DNA of 64,000 nucleotides from Minisyncoccota bacterium (lineage in GTDB: Bacteria > Patescibacteriota > Minisyncoccia > Phycocordibacterales > UBA9973), in NCBI GenBank assembly GCA_025453495.1, contig JALOQM010000004.1, positions 28,990-92,989 on the forward strand, written 5' to 3'. Both the position numbers and the translations under genes were made by a program. Below the pieces are notes generated by a model. It was not told where the DNA came from. It worked only from the letters and a program-made list of their open reading frames with translations, and did no database searches. Of the stretch, positions 22,615-63,434 are shown piece after piece (position 1 is the first letter of the stretch; the number at the start of each line of letters is the position of its first letter).

Positions 22615-24960
22615 TTAGATTTCACACACACCAGAAACACACGCTAACTCTTTTTTGACTTCTGTCTCATCTGCACGCTCATAAGTAACAATCTTTGAGA
22701 AGTCGATATTTTTTACTCCTTTCAAAAGCTCTTCGTAACGCTTTGCATCAATCGGCTCATATGGCGCAAGTTGGTAAATATGGTTTGAACGAGGAAGGAA
22801 TGAGAGACCGCCGACAATATCCCAGTTCTCATATACCCAATTAGCAACCATGATCCACTCGTCATCACCAACAGAGATTGTTACTGATGGATTGTGTTCG
22901 GTGAAATTCGTCTTCACCACTTTCCAGTGTTCAAGTTGTTCAAGGGCGGTGATATCGTCCTTGAAGATAGCACCCTTTGGAGCTTTGACTGGAAATTCAA
23001 GTACATAGGTCGTTGCCGTATCCATTGCCTGCCCTACTTCTGGATGATATGGGATACCTTGATCTTTGAGCATTTTGAATAGTGCGTCAGTTGCTGAAAT
23101 ACGAATGCGACGAATGTAGTATTGAGCATGACGTGGATGCATGCCTGATGCTGAGTCTACAGTCTGCGAGACAGTGCCTGATGGCTTCACACAGGTGATA
23201 CAAGTTGATGCATTAATACCAAAGCGCTTTGCGTAGAGTTTGTTGACGCGAATTGCTTCTTCCTTGAGCTTTCGAAGTATTTTTGGATCACGAGCTGCTG
23301 TCGAATCCCACTGACCAGTGATAGAGACACCGAGCAATCGTTCTTCATCGCAATTCTTTTTCCATGCTTTTGAGAGGTATGGGAAATTCGTAAGTGTCGA
23401 CTGATAGGTACCAAGAATTGTGGCGATACGAACCTTTTTCATAAGTGTCTTTTCTGTATCATCGGCACGAGCAACAACTTCAGAAAGATTACAAAATTGC
23501 TTTGACTGAAGGAGGATCTCACCGCACGGATTAGTACCAATCCAACCAATACGATCATCGAGAAGATTCACGCGACGCTCAGGAAGCGTTGCCCCGAGAT
23601 TGCTACGATTAAAGATACCGCGCTCACCCGAGCCAGACTTCATAAGTGCAATCCACTCATCCATAAATTCAGTAGTTGAAGGTTTTGTATTGTATACAGC
23701 GGAGTTATTGGCAAGCATGCGCTGCCCTTCAGAATTCCAAAACTGACCTGTCTTTGCGTCACGCATTGCTTCATCATCTAGATCAGAAAGTGAGATAAGT
23801 GCACTTCTGCGGACACCACCAGCAACGACACATTCGCCAATTTTGCAGATAATGTCATGCACATCAATATTTGAGAGACGCTTACCTTGTTTGCGCAATA
23901 TTCTATCGCGTGCGAATGCAAGCACTTGGCGAAGTGGCTCAGGACCTGAACTCTTGCCTCCCATTGTCTTCAAACGTGCACCTGCTGGGCGAAGCTTAGA
24001 GAAATCAAATTCAACATCATTGCCTGCAAACCAAGTTTCCAAACCGTCAATAAGCGCGTCCGTCCACCCTTCTTTACTATCACCAACGACGTGAACTTTT
24101 GCTTTCTTACCTTTTTGTTTAGCGATCTGCGGTAGTGCCTGGACATTCTGACTCTCAACAGAAAAGCCAACCCCCGTACCACACATAGAGACATACATAA
24201 TTTCTGCGATGTCGCGAAGCGATGCAGGTGCAGTGTAAGAGCAGTTATATGCACAGACATTGGTGCGCTCAGCCGCAGGACCTGCAAACTGTACAAGTCG
24301 CATCGATGGCATAGCCTCCTGACGAAGTATTGCCTCACGTATTTCTTTATACTCAGCGGAAGTCAACTTGTTACCGAGATTCTTCTTCATGAAGTCTACA
24401 TATCTGTCGATCGTTTCAATCCACGTTTCGCGACGACCTTCGGATTCAATCCATTTTGAGTATGTACGGTAGTAGACGAGTTCTGCAAGCGGATTTCTAA
24501 AGTATTTCTTGCTTTCTGCTACCAACTTTTTGACATGCGGTGGTACTTCCCCGAATTCCTCACGCGCTTTGGTGCGTTCTTGACGATAGAGGATATAGCT
24601 CTTGGCTGTCTCTGGTAAACCCTCTTTAATAAGGGCTTTTTCTACCAAATCTTGGATAATCTCAACTGTCGGGACGAAATTGTAGTCCTGGATAGTCTTC
24701 TTAATCTCAAGTAGATCTTGGTGTGCTCGTTCAGCAACATGCTCTGGAGGCATGGCACTCTCCCCAACTACTTTCATTGCTTTGCCAATCGCTCGAGAAA
24801 TACGGTCGATATCAAATGGCACAAGACGACCGTCACGCTTTCTTACTTGGTTGATACCAGTGAAAGAATTCTTTGCCGATGTCTGTGATCGGGGTCCTGG
24901 TTTCACTGAAGACCGGGACTTTGGTGTGGGTTTTTTGCGCATAGTGAGACTATTGTACAT
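22615..24960 (-). CDS. nrdJ: Ribonucleotide reductase, class II (adenosylcobalamin-dependent, NrdJ-like) with N-terminal ATP-cone
   Basis: 781 aa. ATP-cone-like N-terminus (VRKRDGRLVPFDIDRISRAI), active-site block NPCGEI, length and motif order typical of monomeric/dimeric class II RNR. Confidence 0.85.
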   Translation of the reverse strand: MYNSLTMRKKPTPKSRSSVKPGPRSQTSAKNSFTGINQVRKRDGRLVPFDIDRISRAIGKAMKVVGESAMPPEHVAERAHQDLLEIKKTIQDYNFVPTVEIIQDLVEKALIKEGLPETAKSYILYRQERTKAREEFGEVPPHVKKLVAESKKYFRNPLAELVYYRTYSKWIESEGRRETWIETIDRYVDFMKKNLGNKLTSAEYKEIREAILRQEAMPSMRLVQFAGPAAERTNVCAYNCSYTAPASLRDIAEIMYVSMCGTGVGFSVESQNVQALPQIAKQKGKKAKVHVVGDSKEGWTDALIDGLETWFAGNDVEFDFSKLRPAGARLKTMGGKSSGPEPLRQVLAFARDRILRKQGKRLSNIDVHDIICKIGECVVAGGVRRSALISLSDLDDEAMRDAKTGQFWNSEGQRMLANNSAVYNTKPSTTEFMDEWIALMKSGSGERGIFNRSNLGATLPERRVNLLDDRIGWIGTNPCGEILLQSKQFCNLSEVVARADDTEKTLMKKVRIATILGTYQSTLTNFPYLSKAWKKNCDEERLLGVSITGQWDSTAARDPKILRKLKEEAIRVNKLYAKRFGINASTCITCVKPSGTVSQTVDSASGMHPRHAQYYIRRIRISATDALFKMLKDQGIPYHPEVGQAMDTATTYVLEFPVKAPKGAIFKDDITALEQLEHWKVVKTNFTEHNPSVTISVGDDEWIMVANWVYENWDIVGGLSFLPRSNHIYQLAPYEPIDAKRYEELLKGVKNIDFSKIVTYERADETEVKKELACVSGVCEI

Positions 24961-25068: not shown

Positions 25069-25536
25069 TTACCCAGAAAAAGAAACGGGGTCGCCAAGCT
25101 TGAGATTTTGTTTTTGAGAAAAGCCGGCTTTTGTCTCAAGTACATAGAGAGCATCAGTGTTTGGATAAAAAATTTTCGGATATGAATCTGGTGAAATATC
25201 TCGTTCAATATGCACAACAGTCATATCTTCCCCAATCCAAATGATATCAATCGGAAAATGCATATCTTTCATCCAAAAACCATATTTACCGGGCATGGTA
25301 AATACAAATACCATGCCAAAATCATCATGAATTTGAGCATATTTTGCAAGCCCAGTTTCTTTTTCACTCATCGTATCTACAAACTCAATTCGGAGAGTCT
25401 TACCTGCTATGTTAATAATTGACTGTGCTGTAGCTAACTCATTTTTTTGAAAATAAAGAGTTGCTACAGCAATCAATACACCAAAAAACCCAGCAAGTAA
25501 GACAATATGCACGACTTTGTTAATGTTGGTTTTCAT
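25069..25536 (-). CDS. DUF192-family protein, membrane-anchored
   Basis: 155 aa. N-terminal TM helix; conserved core (TLRIEFVDTMSEKETGL...HFPIDIIWIGEDMTVV) resembles DUF192/COG1430. Confidence 0.65.
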   Translation of the reverse strand: MKTNINKVVHIVLLAGFFGVLIAVATLYFQKNELATAQSIINIAGKTLRIEFVDTMSEKETGLAKYAQIHDDFGMVFVFTMPGKYGFWMKDMHFPIDIIWIGEDMTVVHIERDISPDSYPKIFYPNTDALYVLETKAGFSQKQNLKLGDPVSFSG

Positions 25537-27218
25537 AACGAGATTGTAAGAGTTCCATTAGTAATGCTAAGAATCCGGTTCATATACTGCAAAATTGCTG
25601 GACGATGAGTAATACATACTATAGTCTTATGTTTGGCAAAATGTTCAAAAAAGTTTTTTAGTATTCTATATTCAGTTTCTTCATCAAGTGACGATGTTGG
25701 CTCATCAAGAATAAAAATAGGAGCATTCTTACAAATTGCTCGCGCAATACCAATGCGCTGACGCTCTCCACCTGAAAGAGCATATCCTTTCTCACCAACA
25801 ACAGTATCAATCCCATCGGGAAGCGTATCAATAATTCCTTGCAATTCAGAAATACTAATTGCAGCTTCCAAAAGAGCTGGGTTAACTTTACGCATACCGG
25901 TAATGTTTTCTTTAAGAGACACATTCAAGAGTTCAGTTTCTTGAAGGACAACTGATATATTTTTTATTACAGCATCATGATTGATTGACTGGTAGTCTAC
26001 GTCTCCTATCTTAAACGAACCAGAATTAAGAGGATATAAACCAAGGAGAATCTTTACCAGTGATGATTTGCCACTGCCTGAAGATCCGATAATTCCCACC
26101 CATTCATTTTTTTTAATAGTAAAATCAAAATTCTTAAGAGCAATCTTTCCATCGGGATATGATAGGCTTCCATTCTGGATCGTAATAGAATCCCAATCTT
26201 CTGGAAATGACTGATTTCCAGAAGAGTTTTTATCTTCGTTGAAGAAAAGGGGCTTCATTTGAGACAGATCTGAACGTATCTGCACAAAGGTATTCATAGC
26301 GGTCATGCTGTCATTCGCAGCTTCTCTGAGTTTTGAAAAATATGAGTAAAATATGACTATCTGACCGATAGTCATCGCTCCAACGAGCACCTGATTCCCC
26401 GCCACAAGAAAAAATGATGCAATAGCTAAGCCATTTAATGCTTGAAATGAGTACCATTTATAGACTCCTAATCGATTTCTTGCCAATTGTGCTTCTTTTG
26501 AAGCTTCTTCACTATTTTTAATATATTCTTGAATGTTTTTTTCTGCACCGGTTGCTTTTATAGAGAGCATATTTCCTGAACTTTCAATATATTTTCCACT
26601 TGCTGTCTGATTGAGCTTATTTACTGTATCGCTTAAATACAGAAATTTTTTACTGAAACCGACTTGGAGCAATAAGAATATTCCAAGATATCCAGCAATA
26701 ACTACTAAAAACATCCAATTTGTGAATAGAAAAAATGCAATAACACCAACAAACGATACAATGATTGGAAACAACATCTGATTCACAAATGATGTCCAAT
26801 TACCGAGTGCAGCACTCCCAGTAAAAATCCGTTGTGTTTTTGCTCCGGTTGTTTCTGTTGCGTGCCATTTGAGCGAGAGGTCAGACAATTTTTCAAATCC
26901 TATTATTCTGGCACGTGTTTTTGCTATAACTCCGATCTTAGAAAGTGCATATTTGCTTCTCAAGCGTATCAGTGAAACAAGAGCATACGATATTCCAAGA
27001 AACGCAACATAGTTATAAAAAAGAGTGAGTGAATCGCCTCGAGAGTAAGTAATAAAAAAATCGACAATTTTGCCAACAATGAGTGGGGGTACAAGATCAT
27101 AGAAAAATGCAGAAAAAAGAACACCGTTAAAAAAGATGTACGCTACACGCTCTTTTTCTAGAAAATGCCAAATGACCTTTGGTAATTCGATTAGTGAAAA
27201 TGATGTAGCATTTTTCAT
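25533..27218 (-). CDS. ABC transporter, fused permease/ATP-binding protein (type I exporter, MsbA-like)
   Basis: Start at MKNATSFSLIE (ATG at 27216-27218). Six-helix TMD then Walker A GSSGSGKSS, ABC signature LSGGERQRIGIARA, Walker B ILDEPTSSLD. 4-nt ATGA overlap with the downstream gene. Confidence 0.85.
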   Translation of the reverse strand: MKNATSFSLIELPKVIWHFLEKERVAYIFFNGVLFSAFFYDLVPPLIVGKIVDFFITYSRGDSLTLFYNYVAFLGISYALVSLIRLRSKYALSKIGVIAKTRARIIGFEKLSDLSLKWHATETTGAKTQRIFTGSAALGNWTSFVNQMLFPIIVSFVGVIAFFLFTNWMFLVVIAGYLGIFLLLQVGFSKKFLYLSDTVNKLNQTASGKYIESSGNMLSIKATGAEKNIQEYIKNSEEASKEAQLARNRLGVYKWYSFQALNGLAIASFFLVAGNQVLVGAMTIGQIVIFYSYFSKLREAANDSMTAMNTFVQIRSDLSQMKPLFFNEDKNSSGNQSFPEDWDSITIQNGSLSYPDGKIALKNFDFTIKKNEWVGIIGSSGSGKSSLVKILLGLYPLNSGSFKIGDVDYQSINHDAVIKNISVVLQETELLNVSLKENITGMRKVNPALLEAAISISELQGIIDTLPDGIDTVVGEKGYALSGGERQRIGIARAICKNAPIFILDEPTSSLDEETEYRILKNFFEHFAKHKTIVCITHRPAILQYMNRILSITNGTLTISL

Positions 27219-27228
27219 TCCTAGGATG

Positions 27229-29481
27229 TTATTTCGCGATAGTAGCCGCTTCGTCAAATTTAATCGAGAGTAACTTTGACGCACCGTCTGCGCCGACAGT
27301 CACGCCATAGAGAACATTTGCACGTGACATCGTCTCACGATTGTGAGTGATAACGATCAGCTGAGAGTACTTTGAGAGATTCTCAAGCATGTCGCCATAT
27401 TTACGGCTATTTGCCTCATCAAGCGCGGCATCGGTCTCATCAAGTACGAGAAATGGTGGCGGATTGACCTGAGAGATCGCAAAGAGAAGTGCAATCGAGG
27501 TAAGCGAACGCTCGCCACCTGAGAGCATCGTCAGTTCTTTAACCTTTTTGTGTGGAAGTGAGATATGGATAGCGATACCGCTTTCAAATTCTTCTTCCTC
27601 TGGCATTTCTGTAATCTCCTCATCATCCACGACCCGCTTTTTAGGAAGAACAACTGCAAGAGACGCCTGACCACCGCCAAACATAAGTGCAAAGAAATTC
27701 TCAAACTGTGTATTTATCCGCTCAAGACCCTGGCGAAACTCAGCATCAAGATGTTCTTTGAGATCACGAATAAGGCTTTCAAGTGAAGCGAGGCTTTGTT
27801 TGAGGTCGTCGATTTCTTTGGCAAGGAATTCACTACGTTCTTTGACTTCGGTGTACTCTTTTATGATGTCGTCTCCCCCCCCCGCGCCAATGTCCTCAAG
27901 CTTGATTTTGATGCGCTCAATCGCTCGTTTGCGATCCTCTTGCATCTGACGTGATTCAGTTATATCTGCATGCGGTATTGAGAATTCTTTGTAGGCCAAA
28001 ATTTCTCGACCAATAAAGCCTTCCCCTTCTTGTATTTCCTCTATCAACTGATCATAGAGACGTTTATTGGAGTCTTCTTTTGCTTCTGTAAGCGCGAGTG
28101 CATTCTCGACTTCTTTCCGCGCTAATATACGCTCAAAGCGTACCTGATCAGCCTGACGCTCAAGTGCTTTTTCTTCTACGATGGCGACTTTGAGGCTATC
28201 GCTTTTCTCGCGTAACGCAGTTTCTTCGAGTACAAGTTTCTCTACTTCGCCAAGAAGTCCTGCATGTGTCTCGCGCATCGCCAGAAGCTCTGCAGCATTT
28301 CCTGCATCTGTAACCGTTTCTGGTTGTGCTTTCTTGTCGACAAATGTCGCAATCATCGTCCGTATCCGTACTGCAATGCCACGTATTTCCTCGATATCTG
28401 CTTTTGAAGAAAGTTCGTCAATCGCGCTTGCCACACTTGCAAGTAATGCATCCACTTCAGCAGAACGTATCATTCGATTCTCAGTTGGCATTTCTTCCTT
28501 ACGACGTGCTCGTTTCTCTTCAAGCTCGATCATACCTTCAATGCGGCCGAGCTTGCGCGATACCTCATCTTTCAAAGCACCGATCGCTCTTGCTTTTTCT
28601 TCAGTCTCAGCAAGTGCACGCTCGCTTGCACTGCGCTCACGGACTATTTCTGTCTGTTCTTCTACTGAAGCTCGTATAGTATCAAGCTTTGCCAAAAGCT
28701 CTGCCTTTTCTGTCTCAATTTTCTGTCGCTCGTCAGAAATATAGAGCTCTTCTTTCTTGAGATACTCAGTATACAAGCCTCTAAGCTCTTGGCGCATACT
28801 TTCTGCTTTTTCGTATTTCTCTACTTGCTTCTTGAGAAAAGTAAGATGTGGCAGTATTTCACGGCGAGCTGATTCTGCTTCTTTGATATTCTCTTCAGTC
28901 TTCCCAAGCTTACGCTCGCTCTCACGAATACGGTACTGATACACCTTAAGACCAAGCGCGTCTTCGATCATCGCACGACGATCTTTTGCAGATGCATTCA
29001 AGATTCGATCTGCTTCACCCTGAGAAATGATATGGTGACCAGAGGCACCTATGTTTACTGACGCAAGAAGTTCAAGTACGTCTTTCAAGCGCACCTCAGA
29101 ACCGTTGATGAGATAGCGATTCACGCCATCTGGATAAACTTCACGAGAAATACTCACTTCATCAAAATCAAGCTTCGTTGCGTCACCTCCTGCACTAGTC
29201 GGCATTGAGAAGACACGCTTTGTATTATCAAAGACAATCGTCACACCAGCGCGTGACTGCTTCGGAAGTGTCTTTGAGCCTTTGAAGATGAGATCGGCGC
29301 CGAGTTTACCACGAAGTGACTTCATCGACTGCTCACCAAGTACAAAACGGATCGATTCGACGACGTTTGATTTGCCAGAACCATTTGGTCCCACCACAGC
29401 GGTAACTGGACTTGTAAACAAAAGCTCGCTCTTCTTGGCGAATGACTTGAATCCTATAATTTCTAGGCGTTTTAGTTGCAT
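27229..29481 (-). CDS. smc: SMC-family chromosome-partition ATPase, short form (750 aa)
   Basis: N-terminal Walker A GPNGSGKSN, long coiled-coil (E/K/R/L-rich), C-terminal LSGGERSLTSIALLFA and Walker B FLVLDETDAALD. Only about two-thirds the usual SMC length. Confidence 0.8.
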   Translation of the reverse strand: MQLKRLEIIGFKSFAKKSELLFTSPVTAVVGPNGSGKSNVVESIRFVLGEQSMKSLRGKLGADLIFKGSKTLPKQSRAGVTIVFDNTKRVFSMPTSAGGDATKLDFDEVSISREVYPDGVNRYLINGSEVRLKDVLELLASVNIGASGHHIISQGEADRILNASAKDRRAMIEDALGLKVYQYRIRESERKLGKTEENIKEAESARREILPHLTFLKKQVEKYEKAESMRQELRGLYTEYLKKEELYISDERQKIETEKAELLAKLDTIRASVEEQTEIVRERSASERALAETEEKARAIGALKDEVSRKLGRIEGMIELEEKRARRKEEMPTENRMIRSAEVDALLASVASAIDELSSKADIEEIRGIAVRIRTMIATFVDKKAQPETVTDAGNAAELLAMRETHAGLLGEVEKLVLEETALREKSDSLKVAIVEEKALERQADQVRFERILARKEVENALALTEAKEDSNKRLYDQLIEEIQEGEGFIGREILAYKEFSIPHADITESRQMQEDRKRAIERIKIKLEDIGAGGGDDIIKEYTEVKERSEFLAKEIDDLKQSLASLESLIRDLKEHLDAEFRQGLERINTQFENFFALMFGGGQASLAVVLPKKRVVDDEEITEMPEEEEFESGIAIHISLPHKKVKELTMLSGGERSLTSIALLFAISQVNPPPFLVLDETDAALDEANSRKYGDMLENLSKYSQLIVITHNRETMSRANVLYGVTVGADGASKLLSIKFDEAATIAK

Positions 29482-30897: not shown

Positions 30898-31806
30898 TTA
30901 GTTGCCTTTTGCAAGAAGCGCTACACCTTTGGTAATGACTGGCAACATATCGTCGTACATTTTAAGCTCGGTGATATCGGCGAGTTTAAACCAGTGTGCA
31001 TCATCGAGTCCTCCTGAATCATCAAGGGTTAACTCACCATATTTCGCTTCGGCAAGGAAGAAAGATACTTTTTTCAGAGTTTTGCCTTTCTCTGGATGAG
31101 ATGCGACATATTCGTTGCCACCGAGCTTGTCTTTGACTTCTACAGTAAGACCAATCTCTTGCTTAACTTTACGGATCACGCCAGCTTCTTCCTCTTCTCC
31201 TTCCTCGAGCTTACCTTTGGAAAGGGTCCAACGACCAAAGACATCATGCACAAGAGCAAGGAGTATTTCTCCATTCTTATAAGCATAGACAACAGCGCCG
31301 ACAAGCGTCTCAACAGGAAGTTTTGAGATATCGACAGGCTCAGCTGTCTTTTTCTTTTTGCTTACTTCTTCTTTGCCAGGCTCGCCAAGTTCTTTGTAGA
31401 CAGCACCAAGTACACCATTGACGAATTTGCCTGAATTTTCTCCACCAAATGTCTTTGCAAGCTCAATAGCTTCGTTAATAGCAACCTTTGGTGGTACTTC
31501 AGTTCTGTTACCAAAAAGAAGCTCAGCAAGTCCAAGACGTAAGATATTGCGATCTACAGAAGAGATTTTATCAATCGGCCAGTCAGGAGCGGCTTTTTCT
31601 ATAACGTCATCGATAATCTTGCCTTTTTTGACGACGAGATCAATGAGACCTTGCATAAAAGCTTGATCATCAAGACCAGGGCCGAATTCTTTTATATTGC
31701 GAGCAAGGATTGCCGCCACCTCTTCAGAGGACGCTTTTTTGTTATTAAAATCCCACTCAAAGAGCGTCTGTAAAACAATTGACCGTGAGAGGTGTCTGTT
31801 TGCCAT
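30898..31806 (-). CDS. nusB: NusB (transcription antitermination factor) fused to a C-terminal NUDIX hydrolase domain
   Basis: 302 aa single ORF. Residues about 1-140 carry NusB blocks (RSIVLQTLFEWDF; AINEAIELAKTFGGENSGKFVNGVLGAV). Residues about 170-302 carry a Nudix box GKLEEGEEEEAGVIRKVKQEIGL (G-x5-E-x7-R-E-x2-E-x-G). Confidence 0.75.
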   Translation of the reverse strand: MANRHLSRSIVLQTLFEWDFNNKKASSEEVAAILARNIKEFGPGLDDQAFMQGLIDLVVKKGKIIDDVIEKAAPDWPIDKISSVDRNILRLGLAELLFGNRTEVPPKVAINEAIELAKTFGGENSGKFVNGVLGAVYKELGEPGKEEVSKKKKTAEPVDISKLPVETLVGAVVYAYKNGEILLALVHDVFGRWTLSKGKLEEGEEEEAGVIRKVKQEIGLTVEVKDKLGGNEYVASHPEKGKTLKKVSFFLAEAKYGELTLDDSGGLDDAHWFKLADITELKMYDDMLPVITKGVALLAKGN

Positions 31807-40037: not shown

Positions 40038-40042
40038 CTTTG

Positions 40043-40116
40043 CGCGAGTGATGGGACTTGAACCCACGACCTTCCGCGTGACAGGCGGACGCTCTAACCA
40101 GCTGAGCTACACCCGC
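40043..40116 (-). tRNA. tRNA-Asp (anticodon GTC)
   Basis: Hand fold: acceptor GCGGGTG/CACTCGC, anticodon loop CTGTCAC, T-arm GTGGG-TTCAAGT-CCCAT, discriminator G. Confidence 0.85.
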
Positions 40117-40174
40117 AATTCTGGTTACTTTTCGAACATAGGCACTGTAGCAATTTTCGCGCCCATATTCAATG

Positions 40175-40248
40175 TGTCGGCGGGTGGAATCGAACCACCG
40201 ACCTTGGGCTTATGAGTCCCACGCTCTAACCGACTGAGCTACGCCGAC
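40175..40248 (-). tRNA. tRNA-Met (anticodon CAT), elongator type (G1-C72 paired)
   Basis: Hand fold: acceptor GTCGGCG/CGCCGAC, anticodon loop CTCATAA, T-arm GGTGG-TTCGATT-CCACC. Could alternatively be a lysidine-modified tRNA-Ile2. Confidence 0.75.
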
Positions 40249-40271
40249 ATATATGTATTTATCAAACCATG

Positions 40272-40343
40272 TTGCGGGGGCCGGATTCGAACCGACGATC
40301 TCAAGGTTATGAGCCTTGCGAGATACCACTTCTCCACCCCGCG
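40272..40343 (-). tRNA. Initiator tRNA-fMet (anticodon CAT)
   Basis: Acceptor CGCGGGG...CCCCGCA A with the C1:A72 mismatch diagnostic of bacterial initiator tRNA. T-arm GTCGGTTCGAATCCGGC almost identical to E. coli tRNA-fMet. Confidence 0.85.
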
Positions 40344-49513: not shown

Positions 49514-50548
49514 CTATGCTATCGTATAGAGTCCGTTTTTGTTTTTCTTGAAATATTTTGGGTTCTGGAGATTAACGAGAATAGTATTCTTCTTGAGGAA
49601 ACGCTCTTTGAGGACACGATTGACGATACCGTCTTTTGACATTGGACCCTCTTTCTTGAGAATCTCTTTTATCACATCACGGACAACACCTGGCTTATAT
49701 CCCCAATCACGAAGTGCATAGTAGCCACGACCGACAAGCACGAAACGCTGATCTTTGATGAGTTCATTGTGACAGGTCGCGACATGCGTCTTTTTGCCAA
49801 AGGTATCGGTAATTGCTTTTGCAACTTCGCGGAAATGCATCGGAGAACCATGCTTTCGCATGATGAGATACGCATAGTCTTTGACACCACGAGTTTTTAC
49901 ATTTGATGAATCAGCCCTCCCCCACTCACCAAGTGGATTGCTATTGATACGCTTTGAGATCGAAAGCCAACGACGTGCAATTTCTTCGTTCTTGTATTCA
50001 GCAGCAACTCCTTTGAGTTCATTTATAAAACGATCAACGATATCTGGCTCTGAAACGAGTTCATCATCAGAAAGTGATTCATAGAGTTTCTTGAGTGTAA
50101 TATGGACACCGTCTGCAGTAGCACGATCGACACTCCACCGTGGTTTGAAATGTTCATCTTCTTTATGTTTCTCAAAAAAGTCATGCACAACAAGGTGTAG
50201 ATGTATATGATTTTGTGTACTTTCGTCTTTGGAAATAGAACCAAGAAGATCCTCTTCAGAAACAACACCGCCAAGCGAAGCGATATAGTCACGGAGCTCT
50301 TCAAATGCCTTCTGTTCTACTTTGAATGCTTCTGACTTTCTGATCGAAGTAAGAGCTGCATTTTCTATCTGGCGTACACGCTCACGTGTAATCCCGTATT
50401 TTTGACCGATAGCTTCGAGTGTCTTTCGTTCGAGATCATCACCAAGTCCAAAACGTCCGGAGATGACATCATAGGCACGGTCGTGCAGATCTGCAAGAAT
50501 CTTCTTGGTAGTCTGCTTTGGTTTAAAAGTTAATGTAATTGAAGGCAT
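49514..50548 (-). CDS. DNA-binding protein with N-terminal sigma-70 region-4 HTH and C-terminal HARE-HTH domain
   Basis: 344 aa. Residues about 20-75 GRFGLGDDLERKTLEAIGQKYGITRERVRQIENAAL match the sigma-70 region 4 consensus. C-terminus MHFREVAKAITDTFGKK...CHNELIKDQRFVLVGRGYYALRDW resembles the HARE-HTH domain of the RNA polymerase delta subunit. No sigma region 2. Confidence 0.5.
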   Translation of the reverse strand: MPSITLTFKPKQTTKKILADLHDRAYDVISGRFGLGDDLERKTLEAIGQKYGITRERVRQIENAALTSIRKSEAFKVEQKAFEELRDYIASLGGVVSEEDLLGSISKDESTQNHIHLHLVVHDFFEKHKEDEHFKPRWSVDRATADGVHITLKKLYESLSDDELVSEPDIVDRFINELKGVAAEYKNEEIARRWLSISKRINSNPLGEWGRADSSNVKTRGVKDYAYLIMRKHGSPMHFREVAKAITDTFGKKTHVATCHNELIKDQRFVLVGRGYYALRDWGYKPGVVRDVIKEILKKEGPMSKDGIVNRVLKERFLKKNTILVNLQNPKYFKKNKNGLYTIA

Positions 50549-54811: not shown

Positions 54812-55525
54812 TTACATAAGCACGAGCGCTATATATTCAAGAAGCATTTTTGTTGATGCGCCGCGATCACGCATATAGCTCTTTGTACGAAGCAATGACT
54901 CATAGTGCGTAACTGGTACTGAAGTACTATTTTGCATAGCATCTCTCAGTGCAAGCTCGATGCCGTCGAGTAGTTTGAGCGCCTCGCCTTTCAGATACAC
55001 ATGTTTCTCATCATCTTCATACTCCGTAAGAAGCTCTGCAATGTACTTAAGACGTTCTGGTTTGGATAATCGAAGAAATTCTTTTCCTTTAGTTAAGAGT
55101 ACAGTATGTTGCTCTGGACGAGTATCTCGAGGAATGAGAAAAAAACGTGAACGCAAGGTTGGAAGCAGTGCATCTCCACTTGGCGTGATGACAAAGAAGT
55201 GCACACCAAGTGCTGGCTCTTCAAGCACCTTAAGGAGTGCATTTTCTGCTTCACGAGTAAAAAAACGAACCCCAATAAGAAAAAATCTTCTATCACCCAC
55301 TGCACTACGTTCAACTTGTCTTGCGCGAAGCGCTCGCGCATCATCAACAGTAAAGAGTTCATAGTACTCACTTGTGACATCAGGGTTCCCTTCACGTGCA
55401 ACTCCAAAAGAATCAAGTAGTGTAAGAATACTTGGCAAAAGCACTTCATGCTCTCCTTCTATGAGATACGCATGATGCAAGGTATCTCTGTGTATGTGTG
55501 CGGCAAGCTGCATACTCTCGCTCAT
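54812..55525 (-). CDS. holB: DNA polymerase III delta-prime-like clamp-loader subunit (degenerate, no P-loop)
   Basis: 237 aa. HAYLIEG, LLKVLEEP, sensor-like TLRSRF. Lacks an intact Walker A. Confidence 0.6.
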   Translation of the reverse strand: MSESMQLAAHIHRDTLHHAYLIEGEHEVLLPSILTLLDSFGVAREGNPDVTSEYYELFTVDDARALRARQVERSAVGDRRFFLIGVRFFTREAENALLKVLEEPALGVHFFVITPSGDALLPTLRSRFFLIPRDTRPEQHTVLLTKGKEFLRLSKPERLKYIAELLTEYEDDEKHVYLKGEALKLLDGIELALRDAMQNSTSVPVTHYESLLRTKSYMRDRGASTKMLLEYIALVLM

Positions 55526-55588: not shown

Positions 55589-56068
55589 CTACAGCAACGT
55601 AAAAACAATAACGTGTTGCTTTGCACCTTCTGGTGCGCCAAAATCTGCACTGGGTCGAGACTCAAAGCTGATTCTGGCGAGTTGCTTTTTCTCCCATACT
55701 TCATTTACAGCCTCTATTGCTCTTTTGACTATAGAGATGGCTCGCACACCGGTCAGTTGATGTACATCATACAGATGAAATTCGCAACTAAATGCTTTAT
55801 GCAAAGAAAACATGTCTTCAGTACACCCTGCTTCGCGAAGCAGTCGCCCAAGTAGGCTCACTGTTTCACCTGCTGTCTGATTATTGGGATCAATTTGGTA
55901 CTGGTGCTGCCACATAAAGATATTTCTGTATTCACCCGGTAGATCAGCAAGTAAGTGCTTCTCGATACAGTCAAGAATAGAAAGCACAAGTGCATGTTTC
56001 AATTCGTTTCGAAACACATGAAGCTCTAAATATGATTTTTTCATTAGAACAGTTTTTGATTTACGCAT
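55589..56068 (-). CDS. Hypothetical protein
   Basis: 159 aa ORF with ATG start. No confident family assignment. Confidence 0.35.
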   Translation of the reverse strand: MRKSKTVLMKKSYLELHVFRNELKHALVLSILDCIEKHLLADLPGEYRNIFMWQHQYQIDPNNQTAGETVSLLGRLLREAGCTEDMFSLHKAFSCEFHLYDVHQLTGVRAISIVKRAIEAVNEVWEKKQLARISFESRPSADFGAPEGAKQHVIVFTLL

Positions 56069-57266: not shown

Positions 57267-57629
57267 TCATGCCCATACTTTGCTTCCAATCTTCCCGCCT
57301 ACAAAAAGAGTAAACGGGATGGCGAATACCGCAAAAAAAGGCAGAAGTACCCATTCCAAGGGAAGCGAGGAAATTACCCAATACATACTACGAAGTATGC
57401 ATGTTAGCACAACAATAGCTTCTACACAGTCATACACAAAAGATATAAAGCTAAAAATCACGCCGCCATCCTTGGATAAATCTCTCAATTTACCTCCAGT
57501 ATTGGAGGTACTACTACTTAAAAAAAGTAGGAATAGGATAAATAGACCCGATGCCGGAGTTTGCCAAAGAGCACCAATGCCAAATGCAAAGGACATGAGC
57601 ACGAAAAAATTATAAGGTATGTTTTTCAT
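57267..57629 (-). CDS. Hypothetical small membrane protein
   Basis: 120 aa with 3 hydrophobic helices. Stop lies just above the terminator at 57208-57247. The overlapping plus-strand ORF was judged less likely. Confidence 0.3.
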   Translation of the reverse strand: MKNIPYNFFVLMSFAFGIGALWQTPASGLFILFLLFLSSSTSNTGGKLRDLSKDGGVIFSFISFVYDCVEAIVVLTCILRSMYWVISSLPLEWVLLPFFAVFAIPFTLFVGGKIGSKVWA

Positions 57630-57779: not shown

Positions 57780-59717
57780 ATGAAAGTCGTCACTGTCATT
57801 CCTCTCACTCGAGGGCTCTATAAGGAAGATCTTTCCTACTTCACCGCACATGCCGTCACACCAGGCACAATCGTTTCCGTCCCTCTTCGCAAAAAAATAG
57901 TCGATGCCGTTGTGATCGCAGTAGAGCACCTGACAAGCTCAAAGATCAAGGTGAAGTCTTCGGCATTTGCTCTCAAAAAAATCCACTCTATCAAGGGACC
58001 ATTACCCTTTCACACTGCATTTTGGAATACACTTGTGGACACACGGACGTACTTTCTTGGCACTCTTGGTGCCACACTCTATTCACTTGTACCGAAGCTC
58101 TTTTTTGATGAATACGAATTACTCCCAAAACTTGCACAACAAGAAACTCCTCGCATGTCTGCAATCGCGCAAGACAAACTCGCGCTCATGCGACCACTTG
58201 ATGAACGCATCGGGCTGTATCGGACACTTATCCGAGAATCATTTGCCAAAAAGGAATCTATCTATCTGTGTGTACCGACAGTGCGCGACGCAATCTTATT
58301 TTATGAAGCACTCAAAAAAGGCATCGAAGAATATATCTATCTTTTCCACGGCGAACTCACACCCAAAAAAACACTTGCATCGTATAGTGCTGCAGTCCTA
58401 AACGAACACCCAGTCGTTATTGTCGGCACTGGTGGCTACTTGGCAGTGCCAAGACAAGACATACAAACTGTCATCGTAGAGCGTGAGACATCACCATCGT
58501 ACCGGACAATAGGAAGACCGCATCTTGATATTCGAGTATTTGCGGAATTTTTTTCAAGGAGAATTGGCGCGCGCCTCATCATGGCTGATACGTTCTTGCG
58601 GACCGAGACATTGCATCGCATGGAATCCGGAGCGCTATCAGAAATGAGCCGCCCCTCATTTCATCTCTCAAAGACAATCAAGCGAGAAATCATCGACACA
58701 CGACGCAAAGAAGATGATAAAGGTACTAAAGCACCGTTTAGTAGTGTGCATCCGAGACTCAAAGAAGTAATCGAAGAAACGACTCTTCAAGGCGGGCGCT
58801 CATTTATCTTTACACTGAGAAAAGGTCTTGCTCCAGTCACGCAGTGTGGCGACTGTGAGCATATCCTTGGCTGCGAAGCCTGTGGTGCGCCGCTTGTCTT
58901 ATATAAAGAGTCTGGTGAGCGGCGTATCTACCGTTGCAATAAATGTGAAAAAACATATTCCTCACTTATCCTTTGTCCCTCATGTACAAGCTGGAAACTA
59001 GTACCGCTTGGTATCGGCACCGAATCGGTCACCGAAGAACTCCGACGACTGCTCCCTCAAGCGACAATACTCCATGTCGACAAAGAACATACAAAAACAA
59101 AAGCACAGGTGGAAAAAGTACTCAACATCTTTTATAAAACACCGGGAGCAATCCTGGTGGGCACAGGGCTTGCACTTCCCTATCTTGCACAAGGCGTAGA
59201 TACTGTCGCTGTAGCGTCATTTGATTCGCTCTTCTCTGTGCCGTCATTTCGTATCGGGGAGAAAATACTTTCACTTGTCGCACGACTTGAAGAATCCACA
59301 ACAACACAGTTTCTCTTGCAGACAAAAAACACTGATGATCTGCTCGTTCGTGATATCGCATCTGGAAATCTCGCAGAAGCGTATACGCGAGAAGCTGCAT
59401 TCCGAGAAACACTCGGGTTTCCTCCATTTTATACATTTGTCAGATTGTCAGTACAAAGCACACGTCCCGAAGAAACACTAGTCCAAGATATGGCACAGAC
59501 GCTGTTTGGAAGTATTGCAACAGAAGTATTCTCTCCTGTCGCGCATAGAAATAACAAAGGCGTAGCTACACACATACTCCTACGCATTCCTGTTGCGAAT
59601 TGGTCACCCGAGCATATCACAAAAAAGCCAGATGATTCGCGCGTCTTTGCGACACGGTGCATGGAGCTTGGTCCCGCATGGGATATTGTTGTCGATCCTG
59701 AAGATATACTGTATTAA
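57780..59717 (+). CDS. priA: Primosomal protein N' (PriA)-like, with degenerate helicase ATPase motifs
   Basis: 645 aa. N-terminal 3'-DNA-binding-domain-like region, PriA Cys-rich zinc region CGDCEHILGCEACGAPL...CNKCEK...CPSC. The positions aligned to Walker A (GSGKT) and Walker B (DEEH) read ...RESFAKKES... and VIVERETS. Confidence 0.7.
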   Translation: MKVVTVIPLTRGLYKEDLSYFTAHAVTPGTIVSVPLRKKIVDAVVIAVEHLTSSKIKVKSSAFALKKIHSIKGPLPFHTAFWNTLVDTRTYFLGTLGATLYSLVPKLFFDEYELLPKLAQQETPRMSAIAQDKLALMRPLDERIGLYRTLIRESFAKKESIYLCVPTVRDAILFYEALKKGIEEYIYLFHGELTPKKTLASYSAAVLNEHPVVIVGTGGYLAVPRQDIQTVIVERETSPSYRTIGRPHLDIRVFAEFFSRRIGARLIMADTFLRTETLHRMESGALSEMSRPSFHLSKTIKREIIDTRRKEDDKGTKAPFSSVHPRLKEVIEETTLQGGRSFIFTLRKGLAPVTQCGDCEHILGCEACGAPLVLYKESGERRIYRCNKCEKTYSSLILCPSCTSWKLVPLGIGTESVTEELRRLLPQATILHVDKEHTKTKAQVEKVLNIFYKTPGAILVGTGLALPYLAQGVDTVAVASFDSLFSVPSFRIGEKILSLVARLEESTTTQFLLQTKNTDDLLVRDIASGNLAEAYTREAAFRETLGFPPFYTFVRLSVQSTRPEETLVQDMAQTLFGSIATEVFSPVAHRNNKGVATHILLRIPVANWSPEHITKKPDDSRVFATRCMELGPAWDIVVDPEDILY

Positions 59718-59773: not shown

Positions 59774-60010
59774 ATGAGAAACACAAACATCGAAGTCAGT
59801 AAAAATCAGAATGAAAACGGACTCTCGCTATTGCGTCGATTTTCGCGCCGCATGCAAGAATCCGGCATCATCCAAAAAGTAAAAGGCAAGCGCTATTCTG
59901 AACGCGCTGAATCGAAACTCTCAATCAAAAACCGCGCGCTCAAGCGCATGGCGAAACGAAAAGAGATGGAACGCCTACGCAAGCTTGGCAAACTCCCAGC
60001 AACCAGATAA
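59774..60010 (+). CDS. rpsU: 30S ribosomal protein S21
   Basis: 78 aa, basic. LRRFSRRMQESGI and RKLGKLP blocks typical of S21. Confidence 0.85.
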   Translation: MRNTNIEVSKNQNENGLSLLRRFSRRMQESGIIQKVKGKRYSERAESKLSIKNRALKRMAKRKEMERLRKLGKLPATR

Positions 60011-60015
60011 TACCC

Positions 60016-60405
60016 ATGGTCGCAAGTGATACAGTCTCAATCACACGCATGACGAAAGGCAAGCTCCCAAGCTTGCCTTTCTTGCGTATAAAAAATGACG
60101 TACTTGGCAAGACATACGATCTGTCAATCGTTTTTGCTACACCAAAAGTCTCTCAAGCACTCAACAAACAATTTCGAGACAAAGACTATCCGACAAATAT
60201 CCTTTCATTCCCTCTTTCAAAAACATCCGGTGAACTTGTGATCTCTCTTGCCAAGGTACGTGCTGGAGCAAGTGAGTTTGGCAAATCATACACACAGTTC
60301 CTTGGGTTCTTGCTCATCCACGGTATGCTCCATTTGAAAGGATACGAGCATGGTAGTACAATGGAGAAGTATGAAGCACGATTTGCAAAAAAGTTTGGCT
60401 TCTAA
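60016..60405 (+). CDS. ybeY: rRNA maturation endoribonuclease YbeY
   Basis: 129 aa. Metal motif HGMLHLKGYEHG (H-x3-H-x5-H). Confidence 0.9.
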   Translation: MVASDTVSITRMTKGKLPSLPFLRIKNDVLGKTYDLSIVFATPKVSQALNKQFRDKDYPTNILSFPLSKTSGELVISLAKVRAGASEFGKSYTQFLGFLLIHGMLHLKGYEHGSTMEKYEARFAKKFGF

Positions 60406-60417
60406 ATCTCTCACTTC

Positions 60418-61575
60418 ATGATTCAGAACGTCAAAGTTGGCATTGATATCGGTACAAGCGCGACACGCGTTGTTGTTTCTGAATTTCACAAAGAAAGCCT
60501 CACGCCAAAAATCTTGGGCACAGGTATCGCTCCTACACATGGCATGCGACATGGCTATGTACTGCAACCAACTGAAGTGGCACGAAGTGTCAAAAAAGCA
60601 CTTACTGACGCTGAGAAAAACGCAGGTATCTCTATTCGGCGCGTCTATGTGTCAATCGGTGGTGTCGGTCTTGGCTCAGAAACCGCCACAGGGTCAATCA
60701 TGATCAGCAAGGCTGATGGTGAAGTGACACACATAGACATCGAAAGAGCAATGCGCGAAAGCGAAGAGTCGCTCAAGCTTGCAAACAAAAAAATTATCCA
60801 TGCTCTACCGATAAGCTACCGTATCGACGGCAAAGAAATCCTCGGCAGTCCAGAAGGTATCCGTGGAGTAAAACTTGAAGTAAAGACGCTCTTTGTCACG
60901 AGTCTCGAGAAGCATCTTGATGAATTACTTGCTGTCGTACGGAGTGCCGGTGTCGAGATTGTCGACGTCATCGCAAGTCCAATTGCGGCAAGTTTTGCAG
61001 TGCTTAATGACCGCCAAAAGACTGTCGGTTGCGCACTCGTAAACACCGGTGCCGAAACTGTCTCGATAGCAGCATTTGAAAACGGCGGCATTGTCTCGCT
61101 CCAAGTATTTTCTATCGGCTCAGCAGACATCACCAATGACATCGCGCTTGGGCTCAAGATTCCTCTCGAAGAAGCCGAAGGTATAAAAACCGGATCCATG
61201 GCAAGTGAGTACTCAAAAAAGAAACTCGACGAGATAATCGAGGCGCGCTTGCGTGATATTTTTGAACTCATCGACAATCATCTCAAGAAGATCAAACGAA
61301 GTGGCCTCCTCCCTGCTGGTATCATCATCACTGGCGGTGGTGCGAACCTCCCGAGAATCGAAGAGTATGCCAAACAGTCACTTAAGCTTCCGGCAAAAAT
61401 TGGCGTCGCAGAACAATTCGAACAAACAAAGAGCAAAGTACGCGACCATGCGTGGTTTGTCGCTGCGGGGCTTACCATCGCCGGCGCAAGTGGAACCAAT
61501 GAACGTGGTGCAAGTGATACCTGGAAGCGAATCAAAGCGTCACTTGGTGCTATACTCAAGCAGTTGATGCCGTAA
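60418..61575 (+). CDS. ftsA: Cell division protein FtsA
   Basis: 385 aa. Actin-like GIDIGTSATRVVV N-terminus, domain order typical of FtsA. Confidence 0.9.
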   Translation: MIQNVKVGIDIGTSATRVVVSEFHKESLTPKILGTGIAPTHGMRHGYVLQPTEVARSVKKALTDAEKNAGISIRRVYVSIGGVGLGSETATGSIMISKADGEVTHIDIERAMRESEESLKLANKKIIHALPISYRIDGKEILGSPEGIRGVKLEVKTLFVTSLEKHLDELLAVVRSAGVEIVDVIASPIAASFAVLNDRQKTVGCALVNTGAETVSIAAFENGGIVSLQVFSIGSADITNDIALGLKIPLEEAEGIKTGSMASEYSKKKLDEIIEARLRDIFELIDNHLKKIKRSGLLPAGIIITGGGANLPRIEEYAKQSLKLPAKIGVAEQFEQTKSKVRDHAWFVAAGLTIAGASGTNERGASDTWKRIKASLGAILKQLMP

Positions 61576-61588
61576 AAAACTATACTTT

Positions 61589-62140
61589 ATGAAAGACATT
61601 TCTATAGAATACGCTCATATATACACAAACAAGAAAATTGGAGAAGAACAAAAGTTATCTCTTACAGTACTGCGTGATCTTGTCAAAGAACATTCTGGAA
61701 AAAATATATCATTTGTACTTATGGTTGATGATTATTCATTTCCTGATCCTTCTTTTGGTTATGGTGGTTTGAAAGATTGGCTCAATGAAAATGGCTTTAA
61801 GCCAGATATCATGATACGTGAATCACAATTAATTCCTTCATGCGACGAGGTTATACATTTAATTGAAGATAAAAAGCTTCGAGAACAGATTGGCGACTAT
61901 ATTCGCAGCAAAAAATACCCTTGCTCACTCTTTGTAGCAACTTGGTATCTTATTCGTCTTGGATATATCGAAAGCAACCTTATACAGAAAGAATTTATTG
62001 CAAAAGAACTCATTAATATTCTACCAAGAAGTTTTGAACCATTTGAGAATGCAGCCTTTGAGATACTTCGCGCGACACGATTTCGCAATGCTGTTGACCA
62101 TATCTCTAATCGCTATTTTGAAGGTAGATTGATCGCATAA
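61589..62140 (+). CDS. Hypothetical protein inserted between ftsA and ftsZ
   Basis: 183 aa ORF with ATG start 13 nt after the ftsA stop. No recognisable family. Confidence 0.45.
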   Translation: MKDISIEYAHIYTNKKIGEEQKLSLTVLRDLVKEHSGKNISFVLMVDDYSFPDPSFGYGGLKDWLNENGFKPDIMIRESQLIPSCDEVIHLIEDKKLREQIGDYIRSKKYPCSLFVATWYLIRLGYIESNLIQKEFIAKELINILPRSFEPFENAAFEILRATRFRNAVDHISNRYFEGRLIA

Positions 62141-62273
62141 TTGCACTCCTTCCCTTCATACTAGAAACTTTTCTGGCTTGAATAATTATGTAAGGGAAAT
62201 TTTTACTTTTCCTCATTTTCTGCTATCATTTCACTTGTATCACTAACAACTAAAAGATAATCACTATCACTGT

Positions 62274-63434
62274 ATGCCAAAACTCAATCCAGAAATTGAA
62301 TCGTTCGCACGTATCAAGGTCATCGGCGTCGGCGGCTCGGGGAAAAACGCTCTCAATCACATGATCAACTCCAAAGTCAAAGGTGTTGAATTCATCGTCA
62401 TGAATACCGATACACAAGACCTTCACAATTCCCTCGCTCAGAAAAAAATCCATCTCGGCAAAAATCTTACCCGCGGTCTCGGTACAGGCATGAATCCAGA
62501 AACAGGACGCAAGGCAGCAGAAGAGACAAAGGCTGAAGTACAAGATGCAATCAAAGGAGCAGATATGGTCTTCATCGCATGTGGTATGGGTGGTGGTACA
62601 GGCACTGGCGCAGCACCGATTGTTGCGCACGCAGCAAAAGAGCAAGGTATCCTCACCGTAGCAGTCACGACAAAGCCGTTCTTTTTTGAAGGAAATGCTC
62701 GTATGCAACTTGCTGAGCGAGGTCTTGCTGAGCTCTCAAAAGAAGTCGACGCTATTATCGTCATTCCAAACGATCGCATGATCGCAGTTGCCGGAAAAGA
62801 CACCAATCTCAAAAACGCTTTTGCTATGTGTGACGATGTCCTCCGTCAGGCTGTCGAAGGCATCTCAGATCTCATCACGACACCTGGTATCATCAACGTT
62901 GACTTCGCTGACATCAAAGCGATCATGTCAGATGCGGGGTCAGCGCTCATGGGCATCGGCTCTGCGACTGGTGAAGGCCGTGCAGAAAAAGCAGCAGTCC
63001 AAGCAATCAATTCTCCACTCCTTGAACTCTCAATCAATGGCGCAAAAGGAGTACTCTTTGCAATCTCTGGTGGTGACGACATCACCATGCACGAAGTGCA
63101 GGAAGCGGCACGTATCATCACAGAGTCTATTGATAGAGATGCCAAAGTGATTTTCGGTACTATTAAAGACGACCGCCTTAAAAAGGGTGAACTGAAGGTC
63201 ACCGTTATCGCGACTGGCTTCCCAACCAACGCCGAGAAGAAGACACTCTTCTCCCCTGTTGTAGAAAATAGTACTCAACAAAAAGAAGAGAAACGAGAAA
63301 TACACAATGCGATGGTGCAGCCTGAAATAAAGAAGGAAGTAAAAAAGATAGAAGTTGAAGAGCTTGTACTCGAAGACGATACCGATGAAGACTGGGGGGC
63401 TGTACCAGCATTCCTAAGACGCGGCAAGAAATAA
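62274..63434 (+). CDS. ftsZ: Cell division protein FtsZ
   Basis: 386 aa. Tubulin signature GGGTGTGAAP, GVGGSGKNALN, T7 loop NVDFADI. Confidence 0.95.
   Translation: MPKLNPEIESFARIKVIGVGGSGKNALNHMINSKVKGVEFIVMNTDTQDLHNSLAQKKIHLGKNLTRGLGTGMNPETGRKAAEETKAEVQDAIKGADMVFIACGMGGGTGTGAAPIVAHAAKEQGILTVAVTTKPFFFEGNARMQLAERGLAELSKEVDAIIVIPNDRMIAVAGKDTNLKNAFAMCDDVLRQAVEGISDLITTPGIINVDFADIKAIMSDAGSALMGIGSATGEGRAEKAAVQAINSPLLELSINGAKGVLFAISGGDDITMHEVQEAARIITESIDRDAKVIFGTIKDDRLKKGELKVTVIATGFPTNAEKKTLFSPVVENSTQQKEEKREIHNAMVQPEIKKEVKKIEVEELVLEDDTDEDWGAVPAFLRRGKK

Follow-up and report, generated by a model that had tools for sequence, protein, structure and literature searches.

A PriA orthologue without ATPase motifs, probably a functional pseudohelicase, in a bacterium of the Parcubacteria/Paceibacteria radiation

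Introduction

The PriA protein of Deinococcus radiodurans carries an arginine in place of the Walker A lysine and has no measurable ATPase or unwinding activity; it binds single-stranded DNA (ssDNA) and forks with near-normal affinity, interacts with DnaB, and has been proposed to serve as a platform that joins fork binding to DnaB contact (Lopper, Boone and Morrow, 2015; PMC4504706). In a review of the field, Deinococcus is named as the sole exception among PriA proteins (PMC5778457). Here we describe a priA-like open reading frame (ORF) located in a 64-kb stretch of contig JALOQM010000004.1 (GenBank assembly GCA_025453495.1), which we refer to as the window. We assign this ORF, with a probability of about three in four, to a PriA orthologue of a bacterium of the Patescibacteria, or Candidate Phyla Radiation (CPR), that belongs to the Parcubacteria/Paceibacteria radiation and has retained PriA as a functional pseudohelicase.

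The steps of PriA function that proceed without ATP have been dissected in Escherichia coli. The priA300 allele (K230R) supports replication restart via the PriA-PriB pathway (PMC5778457), and the K230A variant of the protein loads DnaB in vitro (PMC10175261). Fork binding alone drives a pivot of the cysteine-rich region (CRR), through which a pore for ssDNA is formed by the CRR, helicase domain 2 (HD2) and the C-terminal domain (CTD), and the surface of the CRR to which partners dock becomes exposed; both pivot and pore arise at a fork whose lagging strand is ssDNA (PMC10175261). The nascent 3' end is held in a pocket with the residues D17, Y18, G37 and K61 (PMC5778457), and DNA binding is coupled to ATP hydrolysis by an aromatic-rich loop that extends from K328 to Y335 (PMC5175346).

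Our literature search found no paper that links PriA with CPR, Patescibacteria, Parcubacteria or Saccharibacteria, and a search on motif loss in mycobacterial PriA found nothing relevant. In UniProt/HAMAP, PriA proteins of actinobacteria bear the name 'probable replication restart protein PriA' and a caution that no helicase domains are detectable; they would make up another lineage whose PriA has no helicase motifs that can be recognized.

Results

The ORF encodes a PriA homologue

The priA-like ORF begins with an ATG codon and contains no internal stop codons. Its product is 100% identical to MUD00_02770, a deposited protein from a metagenome-assembled genome (MAG), which carries the name 'hypothetical protein' (Candidatus Pacebacteria bacterium) at NCBI and 'primosomal protein N'' at the Joint Genome Institute (JGI). 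By its sequence and its predicted fold, this protein is a genuine homologue of PriA. The NCBIfam model TIGR00595 matches it with an E-value of 3.9e-53 and 180.8 bits; the curated cut-off of 230.35 is not reached, and the match starts at model position 14, immediately past the P-loop. Model NF004069 aligned over ORF residues 12-566, and the scores for all PRK05580 and PRK14873 models stayed far under the respective cut-offs. Since the ORF attains 181 bits on TIGR00595 vs. at most 99.5 bits on the PRK14873 models, it does not belong to the actinobacterial subfamily. A phmmer search of the solved structures in the PDB matched PriA chains alone (E=3e-26), and comparison of the family profile with E. 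coli PriA by hhalign gave a probability of 99.9.

The AlphaFold2 (AF2) model of the ORF product is of high confidence, with a predicted local distance difference test score (pLDDT) of 88.2 and a predicted template-modelling score (pTM) of 0.85. When this model was compared with the PDB by Foldseek, the nine top matches were all PriA structures. The first rank was taken by 8fak_H (TM 0.76, E=3e-40, 685 columns, with the whole chain covered), the second by the E. coli PriA delta-WH structure 6dcr, and 4nl4 came next; other superfamily 2 (SF2) helicases, e.g., Mfd and DEAD-box proteins, appeared after the PriA structures. The AF2 model is closer to the fork-bound conformer (8fak, TM 0.76) than to the apo structures (TM 0.67), a difference that carries little weight in a predicted structure. 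No other PriA homologue was seen within the window.

All elements of the ATPase site are lost

To locate the helicase motifs, we aligned E. coli K-12 PriA with the homologues by MAFFT and used hhalign as an independent alignment; both agree on the register. R143 of the ORF product is placed opposite K230 of E. coli PriA, and nothing is found opposite the glycine-rich GVTGSG loop. In the AF2 model, residue 137 is the last of strand 1 and residue 140 the first of helix 1. The phosphate-binding loop would therefore be physically gone, as the modelled connection amounts to about 2 residues. The pattern [AG]xxxxGK[ST] is absent from the entire ORF.

The preliminary description of this DNA, which had been made by eye, took the string RESFAKKES for the equivalent of Walker A. 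This register was wrong: the string lies about 10 residues downstream of the former P-loop, within the clade-signature helix YKTLIRESFAKK, and both alignments pair it with another segment of E. coli PriA (Table 1). Its placement of Walker B at VIVERETS coincides with ours, and its core claim that the ORF possesses neither a P-loop nor a DExH motif is borne out, given the missing P-loop pattern and the sequence ERET at the position of DEEH. Across the clade, the relic of Walker B takes the form [ED][HRK]E[SNT]. Erosion extends to motifs III, V and VI, and it has also affected the aromatic-rich loop (Table 1). Y241, D250 and R252, which lie in the relic of this loop, are invariant or nearly so in the clade, with D250 and R252 being invariant.

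Other P-loop proteins encoded in the window, namely a DEAD-box helicase, an SMC protein, an ABC ATPase and BipA, have intact canonical Walker motifs; the motif loss is therefore specific to PriA and does not represent an artefact of composition or assembly. Every element for the binding and hydrolysis of ATP has been lost from the ORF product, which, to judge from these motifs, is presumably devoid of ATPase activity.

The degenerate site is strongly conserved

We assessed selection on the ORF with the Nei-Gojobori (NG86) ratio of non-synonymous to synonymous substitution rates (dN/dS, omega), using the two closest orthologues, L002 and L003 (76% and 60% identity, respectively). Comparison with the 76%-identical orthologue gave dN=0.14 and dS>2, and hence an omega in the order of 0.06; by domain, omega was 0.03 in lobe 1, which houses the dead Walker motifs, and 0.04 in the CRR. 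The purifying selection considered in the preliminary description is thus evident, also in the lobe that has lost catalysis.

For column conservation, we used a set of 190 distinct family members with mutual identities of 31-45% (median 42%). In this set, no other domain has a column entropy as low as that of lobe 1, and the former motif regions YKTLIRESFAKK, DIKTIILEHESS, IFADTLLRPETL and GSILIGTEMAFF are found among the ten most conserved 12-mers. The residues that replaced the catalytic ones are themselves fixed. Opposite G229 of E. coli PriA, 187 of the 190 members have D or E; in the Walker B columns, E stands opposite D320 in 189/190 and opposite E322 in 190/190, and the catalytic E321 is replaced by H, R, K or N. 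This pattern suggests that the conserved dead site now serves a structural or interface role.

Distribution of the motif loss among relatives

A scan of one genome per species detected the clade-signature peptide in 203 GTDB species representatives; since it relied on a clade-specific peptide pattern, this number measures breadth within the clade only. A HMMER search of 1.84 billion cluster representatives (clusters at 50% identity) yielded 1,057 matches with E<=1e-30. Among the best 150 of these 1,057 representatives, the range ends at E=1e-105 and 31% identity, and the length is 620-675 amino acids (aa) throughout. Two further searches for homologues were directed outward from P0224, a family member that has kept DEEH, and from P0213, which among the members comes closest to E. 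coli PriA. The relatives that we examined are the best-scoring matches within the family, the best 120-150 of each search, and with them the edge of the pseudohelicase state was not reached; candidates for its boundary include other CPR classes, e.g., Microgenomatia, Saccharimonadia and Gracilibacteria.

Arginine occupies the K230 column in every aligned sequence of the four sets (190/190, 139/139, 117/117 and 110/110). The deletion in motif VI, the eight cysteines of the CRR and the tyrosine of the 3'-end-binding domain (3'BD) are universal among the best 150 representatives and in the two outward searches. None of the about 560 relatives examined has a P-loop at the site of motif I, so that relatives with canonical motifs, which the preliminary description had envisaged, were not encountered among them. 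In the wider sets, the relic of Walker B alone varies, with the pattern [DE][KRHNE]E[SNGH]. A few homologues (P0224, P0189 and P0247) still read DEEH or EEEH at this position, yet they are without P-loop and motif VI. These sequences would fit a scenario in which P-loop and motif VI were lost long ago and the non-catalytic motif II then decayed slowly; the members with DEEH or EEEH are possibly slowly decaying relics. Some homologues (P0069, P0202, P0244, P0247 and P0361) contain GK[ST] or DExH strings away from the motif sites. We discarded these strings as chance occurrences; they are unconserved and sit in the linker or within the CRR, away from the junction of strand 1 and helix 1.

The source organisms bear the names Nomura-, Wolfe-, Vogel-, Zambryski- and Taylorbacteria, Paceibacter, Paceibacteria/Paceibacterota, Minisyncoccia and 'Parcubacteria'. 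To the extent that it can be read from these sequences, the pseudohelicase form of PriA is at least class-wide in the Parcubacteria/Paceibacteria.

The record labels of the relatives (loci L004-L083 as well as P0001, P0274 and P0463) are inconsistent. 'Uncultured Candidatus Saccharibacteria' is the title of many third-party annotation (TPA) MAGs, and several records, including that of the ORF product, are labelled 'Candidatus Pacebacteria', a name that denotes Microgenomates in the NCBI taxonomy. Both the PriA proteins and the gene order of these relatives group with Parcubacteria/Paceibacteria. We treated these labels as unreliable; they look like fallback or mistaken names.

Retained domains and their functional residues

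The PriA domain order reported in the preliminary description holds for the 3'BD, both helicase lobes, the CRR and the CTD, and fails for the winged helix (about residues 110-200 in E. coli), which is missing: residues 116-200 of E. coli PriA align to gaps only in both MAFFT and hhalign. The 22-residue linker found in its place has the lowest pLDDT and the highest column entropy of the whole protein. The two RecA-like SF2 lobes are kept as folds, as judged from the AF2 model and Foldseek. Precomputed annotations assign PF17764, the family matched by the 3'BD, to most homologues of the ORF, and PF18074, in support of the CTD, to some of them.

The Cys4-type zinc insertion noted previously is fully present. 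C356, C359, C365, C368, C386, C389, C399 and C402 of the ORF product align with the eight cysteines C436, C439, C445, C448, C463, C466, C476 and C479 of E. coli PriA, and they are retained in 188-190 of the 190 clade members and likewise in the wider sets. In the 3'-end pocket, Y20, the equivalent of E. coli Y18, is a tyrosine in 190/190 family members, and the column of K61 holds K or R in 190/190. S or T is found in the D17 column, and G37 falls into a gap. On the CRR, D358 (D438 in E. coli) and the clade-specific S404-W405 pair border the surface that is equivalent to the PriB dock of the E. coli protein; the column of S481-T482-H483 reads S404-W405-N/K406 in the family. Such an altered surface (D358, S404-W405-N/K406) would suit a partner other than PriB.

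Table 1. Features of the priA locus (positions in the window; residue numbers refer to the ORF product).
Feature	Position	Strand	Description
priA-like ORF	57780..59717	+	645 aa; stop codon included
3'-end-binding domain (3'BD)	57780..58109	+	residues 1-110; from PF17764 (E=4e-4, below cut-off), column counts and AF2 secondary structure
Variable linker	58110..58175	+	residues 111-132; in the place of the ~90-residue E. coli winged-helix domain
Helicase lobe 1 (RecA-like)	58176..58649	+	residues 133-290; catalytically degenerate, most conserved domain
Former motif I (Walker A position), MRPLDERIGLY	58188..58220	+	residues 137-147; opposite E. coli GVTGSGKTEVY
RESFAKKES	58233..58259	+	residues 152-160; opposite E. 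coli ENVLAQGKQ (MAFFT, hhalign)
Former motif II (Walker B), VIVERETS	58470..58493	+	residues 231-238; opposite E. coli VIVIDEEHDS; DEEH replaced by ERET
Relic of the aromatic-rich loop, YRTIGRPHLDIR	58500..58535	+	W333 replaced by P; R334 and Y335 lost
Former motif III, IMADTFLRTET	58578..58610	+	E. coli ILGSATPALET; GSATP replaced by ADTFL
Cysteine-rich region (CRR)	58836..59003	+	residues 353-408; two Cys4 zinc sites, inserted in lobe 2
Former motif V, ILVGTGLALPYLA	59151..59189	+	E. coli ILIGTQMLAKGHHF; TQMLAKGHHF replaced by TGL-ALPYL
Former motif VI	59265..59315	+	GRAGRAGK with both arginine fingers replaced; 5-residue deletion
C-terminal domain (CTD)	59340..59717	+	residues 521-645 and stop codon; from AF2 and Foldseek
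Downstream genes	59774..63434	+	S21-like small basic ORF, ybeY, ftsA, 183-aa ORF without family, ftsZ

Gene neighbourhood and other features of the window

The priA ORF is preceded by holB and mreB on the opposite strand and is followed, in its own orientation, by the S21-like ORF, ybeY, ftsA and ftsZ. This full order was recovered in 38 of 82 loci and part of it in most others; the downstream genes differ in 24/82. A scan for promoters and terminators around the priA ORF gave counts at the level of shuffled sequence.

The basic 78-aa ORF between priA and ybeY (59774-60010, + strand) keeps its position in relatives; it has a weak match to the S21 model TIGR00030 (E=2e-3, below cut-off) and none to Pfam. 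The holB homologue (DNA polymerase III delta'; 54812-55525, - strand) is short, with 237 aa, and reaches 62 bits vs. an NCBIfam cut-off of 180.6; in this lineage, standard thresholds thus under-annotate it, as they do PriA, another replication protein. Three ORFs near priA, mreB and ftsA (55589-56068 and 57267-57629 on the - strand, 61589-62140 on the + strand) have no match to Pfam or NCBIfam. The one that lies between mreB and priA has 120 aa and is hydrophobic; an alternative ORF of 138 aa overlaps it on the + strand.

Several proteins encoded elsewhere in the window are unusual in size or architecture. An SMC-like ORF (27229-29481, - strand) encodes 750 aa vs. the about 1,150-1,200 aa of a typical bacterial SMC; its SMC_N match covers residues 3-735, Walker A and B are intact, and it overlaps the downstream ABC-transporter ORF (25533-27284, - strand) by 56 nt. 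In a 302-aa ORF (30898-31806, - strand), a NusB domain at the N-terminus is fused to a NUDIX hydrolase domain at the C-terminus, which is unusual. A protein of 344 aa (49514-50548, - strand) has a Sigma70 region 4 at its N-terminus and a HARE-HTH domain near its C-terminus, which is a non-standard architecture for a sigma factor. The window also encodes a small SET-domain protein of 146 aa (2350-2790, - strand) and a divergent ribonucleotide reductase (RNR; 22615-24960, - strand) with clear ATP-cone and RNR alpha domains and only very weak matches to the catalytic barrel (E ~1e-6). Furthermore, it contains a tight tRNA cluster (40042-40343, - strand) made up of a tRNA-Asp gene and, in tandem, two genes for tRNA-Met(CAT).

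Discussion

A probable platform for fork recognition and helicase recruitment

Since the ORF product keeps the parts that PriA uses in its ATP-independent steps, we read it as a predicted platform for fork recognition and helicase recruitment, a reading that is well supported at the levels of sequence, fold and evolution. The preliminary description had likewise considered a PriA that acts as a platform independent of ATP. This idea fits the sequence and fold evidence and has precedents in D. radiodurans PriA (PMC4504706) and in the K230R and K230A variants of E. coli (PMC5778457, PMC10175261); its two elements, loss of the ATPase and binding of forks, stand as predictions from the sequence. 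We envision that abandoned forks or D-loops would be recognized without ATP: the 3'BD would bind the nascent leading strand at its 3' end, and lobes 1 and 2, the CRR and the CTD would bind the ssDNA of the lagging strand. The docking platform might then bring in DnaB, either directly or via a candidate adaptor, and the former ATP site may now be locked in a novel state that is strongly conserved and serves structure or an interface.

This picture can be extended to the whole Parcubacteria/Paceibacteria radiation and possibly to more of the CPR. Replication would then be restarted throughout with a minimal PriA that works independently of ATP and lacks the winged helix; the nucleotide site of this protein would have become a conserved interface or structural lock (R143, E234, E236, D250, R252 and the YKTLIRESFAKK helix), and DnaB would be recruited directly or via a CPR-specific adaptor bound to the S404-W405 surface. 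We offer this extension as a tentative proposal, to which we give rather less than an even chance.

Several points weigh against the ORF product being such a platform. Synonymous sites are saturated (dS>2), which makes omega an order-of-magnitude figure, with dN being far below dS throughout. D17 is changed to S or T, and the protein lacks the winged helix, a domain with a part in the fork binding of E. coli PriA; fork recognition may therefore differ from that in E. coli. A canonical second PriA or another restart helicase may lie outside the 64-kb window. There is a small possibility that the invariant arginine together with the acidic pair E234 and E236 allows nucleotide binding in a non-canonical manner. 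The functional assignment as such rests on evidence from sequence, fold and evolution.

Alternative explanations

Streamlining is typical of CPR genomes, and a priA gene with degenerate catalytic motifs, a TIGR00595 score of 180.8 against a cut-off of 230.35 and the NCBI name 'hypothetical' might be viewed as a pseudogene, or as a gene which, with selection relaxed, is being lost from a reduced genome. Decay was also raised in the preliminary description, and we consider it very improbable. The gene is not decaying because its frame of 645 aa is intact, omega is low, even in the 'dead' lobe, the same substitutions are fixed in relatives that are 31-45% identical to each other, and synteny is conserved; a protein length kept at 620-675 aa and the confident AF2 model speak against decay as well. 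Chimeric assemblies are implausible in view of the number of orthologues and their independent sources. Even less credible is an alignment artefact in which an intact P-loop has been overlooked by eye. It is true that the earlier Walker A register was mistaken and that 4 of 496 homologues contain GxGK[ST] strings off the site, but MAFFT, hhalign and the boundaries of the hidden Markov model (HMM) matches concur on a site without a P-loop, and no sequence has a GK[ST] at the junction of strand 1 and helix 1 or close to it.

A more substantial objection is that the protein might still be a nucleoside triphosphatase that operates with non-canonical residues, with R143 in the role of the lysine and E234/E236 in that of the D-E pair. 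The presence of arginine opposite K230 in every sequence, the high conservation of lobe 1, the acidic residue opposite D320 and the glutamate opposite E322 in nearly all members, and the DEEH or EEEH of P0224, P0189 and P0247 can all be cited in its favour. This explanation nevertheless seems quite improbable to us: the glycine-rich loop is absent and the strand-helix connection in the model is only about 2 residues long, the catalytic glutamate has become H, R or K, the arginine fingers of motif VI are deleted in all members, and the aromatic-rich loop that links ATPase activity to DNA binding is lost. Moreover, K230R alone kills the ATPase of E. coli PriA (PMC5778457), and D. radiodurans PriA with its natural lysine-to-arginine change has no measurable ATPase (PMC4504706). 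The scaffold could also have acquired a function outside of restart, e.g., in coupling the state of the chromosome to cell division. The neighbourhood of mreB, ybeY, ftsA and ftsZ, kept in most loci, would agree with such a role, as would the lost winged helix, the change at D17 and the clade-specific conserved residues of the CRR, e.g., W405. We regard this scenario as unlikely, albeit less so than a residual nucleoside triphosphatase. The ORF is the sole PriA homologue seen in the window, and the tyrosine and basic residue of the 3'BD, the CRR and the CTD, all of which are kept, constitute the apparatus that binds forks and ssDNA in E. coli; PriA is also the one restart protein that is conserved across bacterial phyla (PMC5778457). 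A housekeeping neighbourhood in a tiny genome is weak functional evidence, the more so as the downstream genes vary between loci.

Implications

The pseudohelicase assignment adds a second lineage of PriA pseudohelicases, which is far larger and more radically eroded than that of Deinococcus. It strengthens the view that the selectable core of PriA consists of fork recognition and a scaffold for loading the replisome, and not of unwinding. As the proteins score below the curated PriA thresholds and often bear the name 'hypothetical protein', gene inventories could wrongly infer that CPR bacteria are without replication restart. The conserved 'dead' lobe 1 offers a defined target for asking why a helicase core persists after catalysis is lost. 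If an ATP-independent PriA were indeed found radiation-wide, this would represent the largest natural lineage of a 'priA300-like' type, and the helicase activity of PriA would be dispensable for an entire major bacterial radiation.

Comparison with known PriA proteins

PriA pseudohelicases have already been described, and the novelty implied by the preliminary description is limited to that extent. Like the E. coli and Klebsiella pneumoniae PriA proteins (4nl4, 6dgd, 8fak), to which it is about 18-24% identical, the protein studied here possesses a 3'BD, two lobes, an eight-cysteine CRR inserted in lobe 2 and a CTD, all within a similar fold (TM 0.67-0.76). Unlike these proteins, it has neither a winged helix nor ATPase motifs, S481-T482-H483 is replaced by S-W-N/K, and it comprises 645 aa as opposed to 732 aa. 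The absence of the winged helix is shared with the E. coli PriA delta-WH protein (6dcr), which, however, is an engineered deletion of an active helicase. By analogy with the priA300 and K230A variants, the ORF product would be an ATPase-dead PriA that assembles the primosome and loads DnaB, and R143 can be viewed as a substitution of the K230R type; these variants differ from it in being engineered single changes in an intact site that depend on PriB and DnaT.

The closest counterpart is the PriA protein of D. radiodurans, with which the ORF product shares poor motifs I and II, an arginine at the position of the Walker A lysine, and retention under selection as a presumed restart factor. The departure from the canonical site that has been described for D. 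radiodurans consists of the lysine-to-arginine change within a poor motif I and a poor motif II; in the protein from Patescibacteria/Parcubacteria, the glycine-rich loop is entirely absent, and motifs III, V and VI, the aromatic-rich loop and the winged helix have been lost in addition. It is thus of the same kind as the Deinococcus-Thermus PriA pseudohelicase and a natural counterpart of priA300. Its main points of note are a wide occurrence, across a whole major CPR radiation, and a conserved, seemingly re-purposed dead site.

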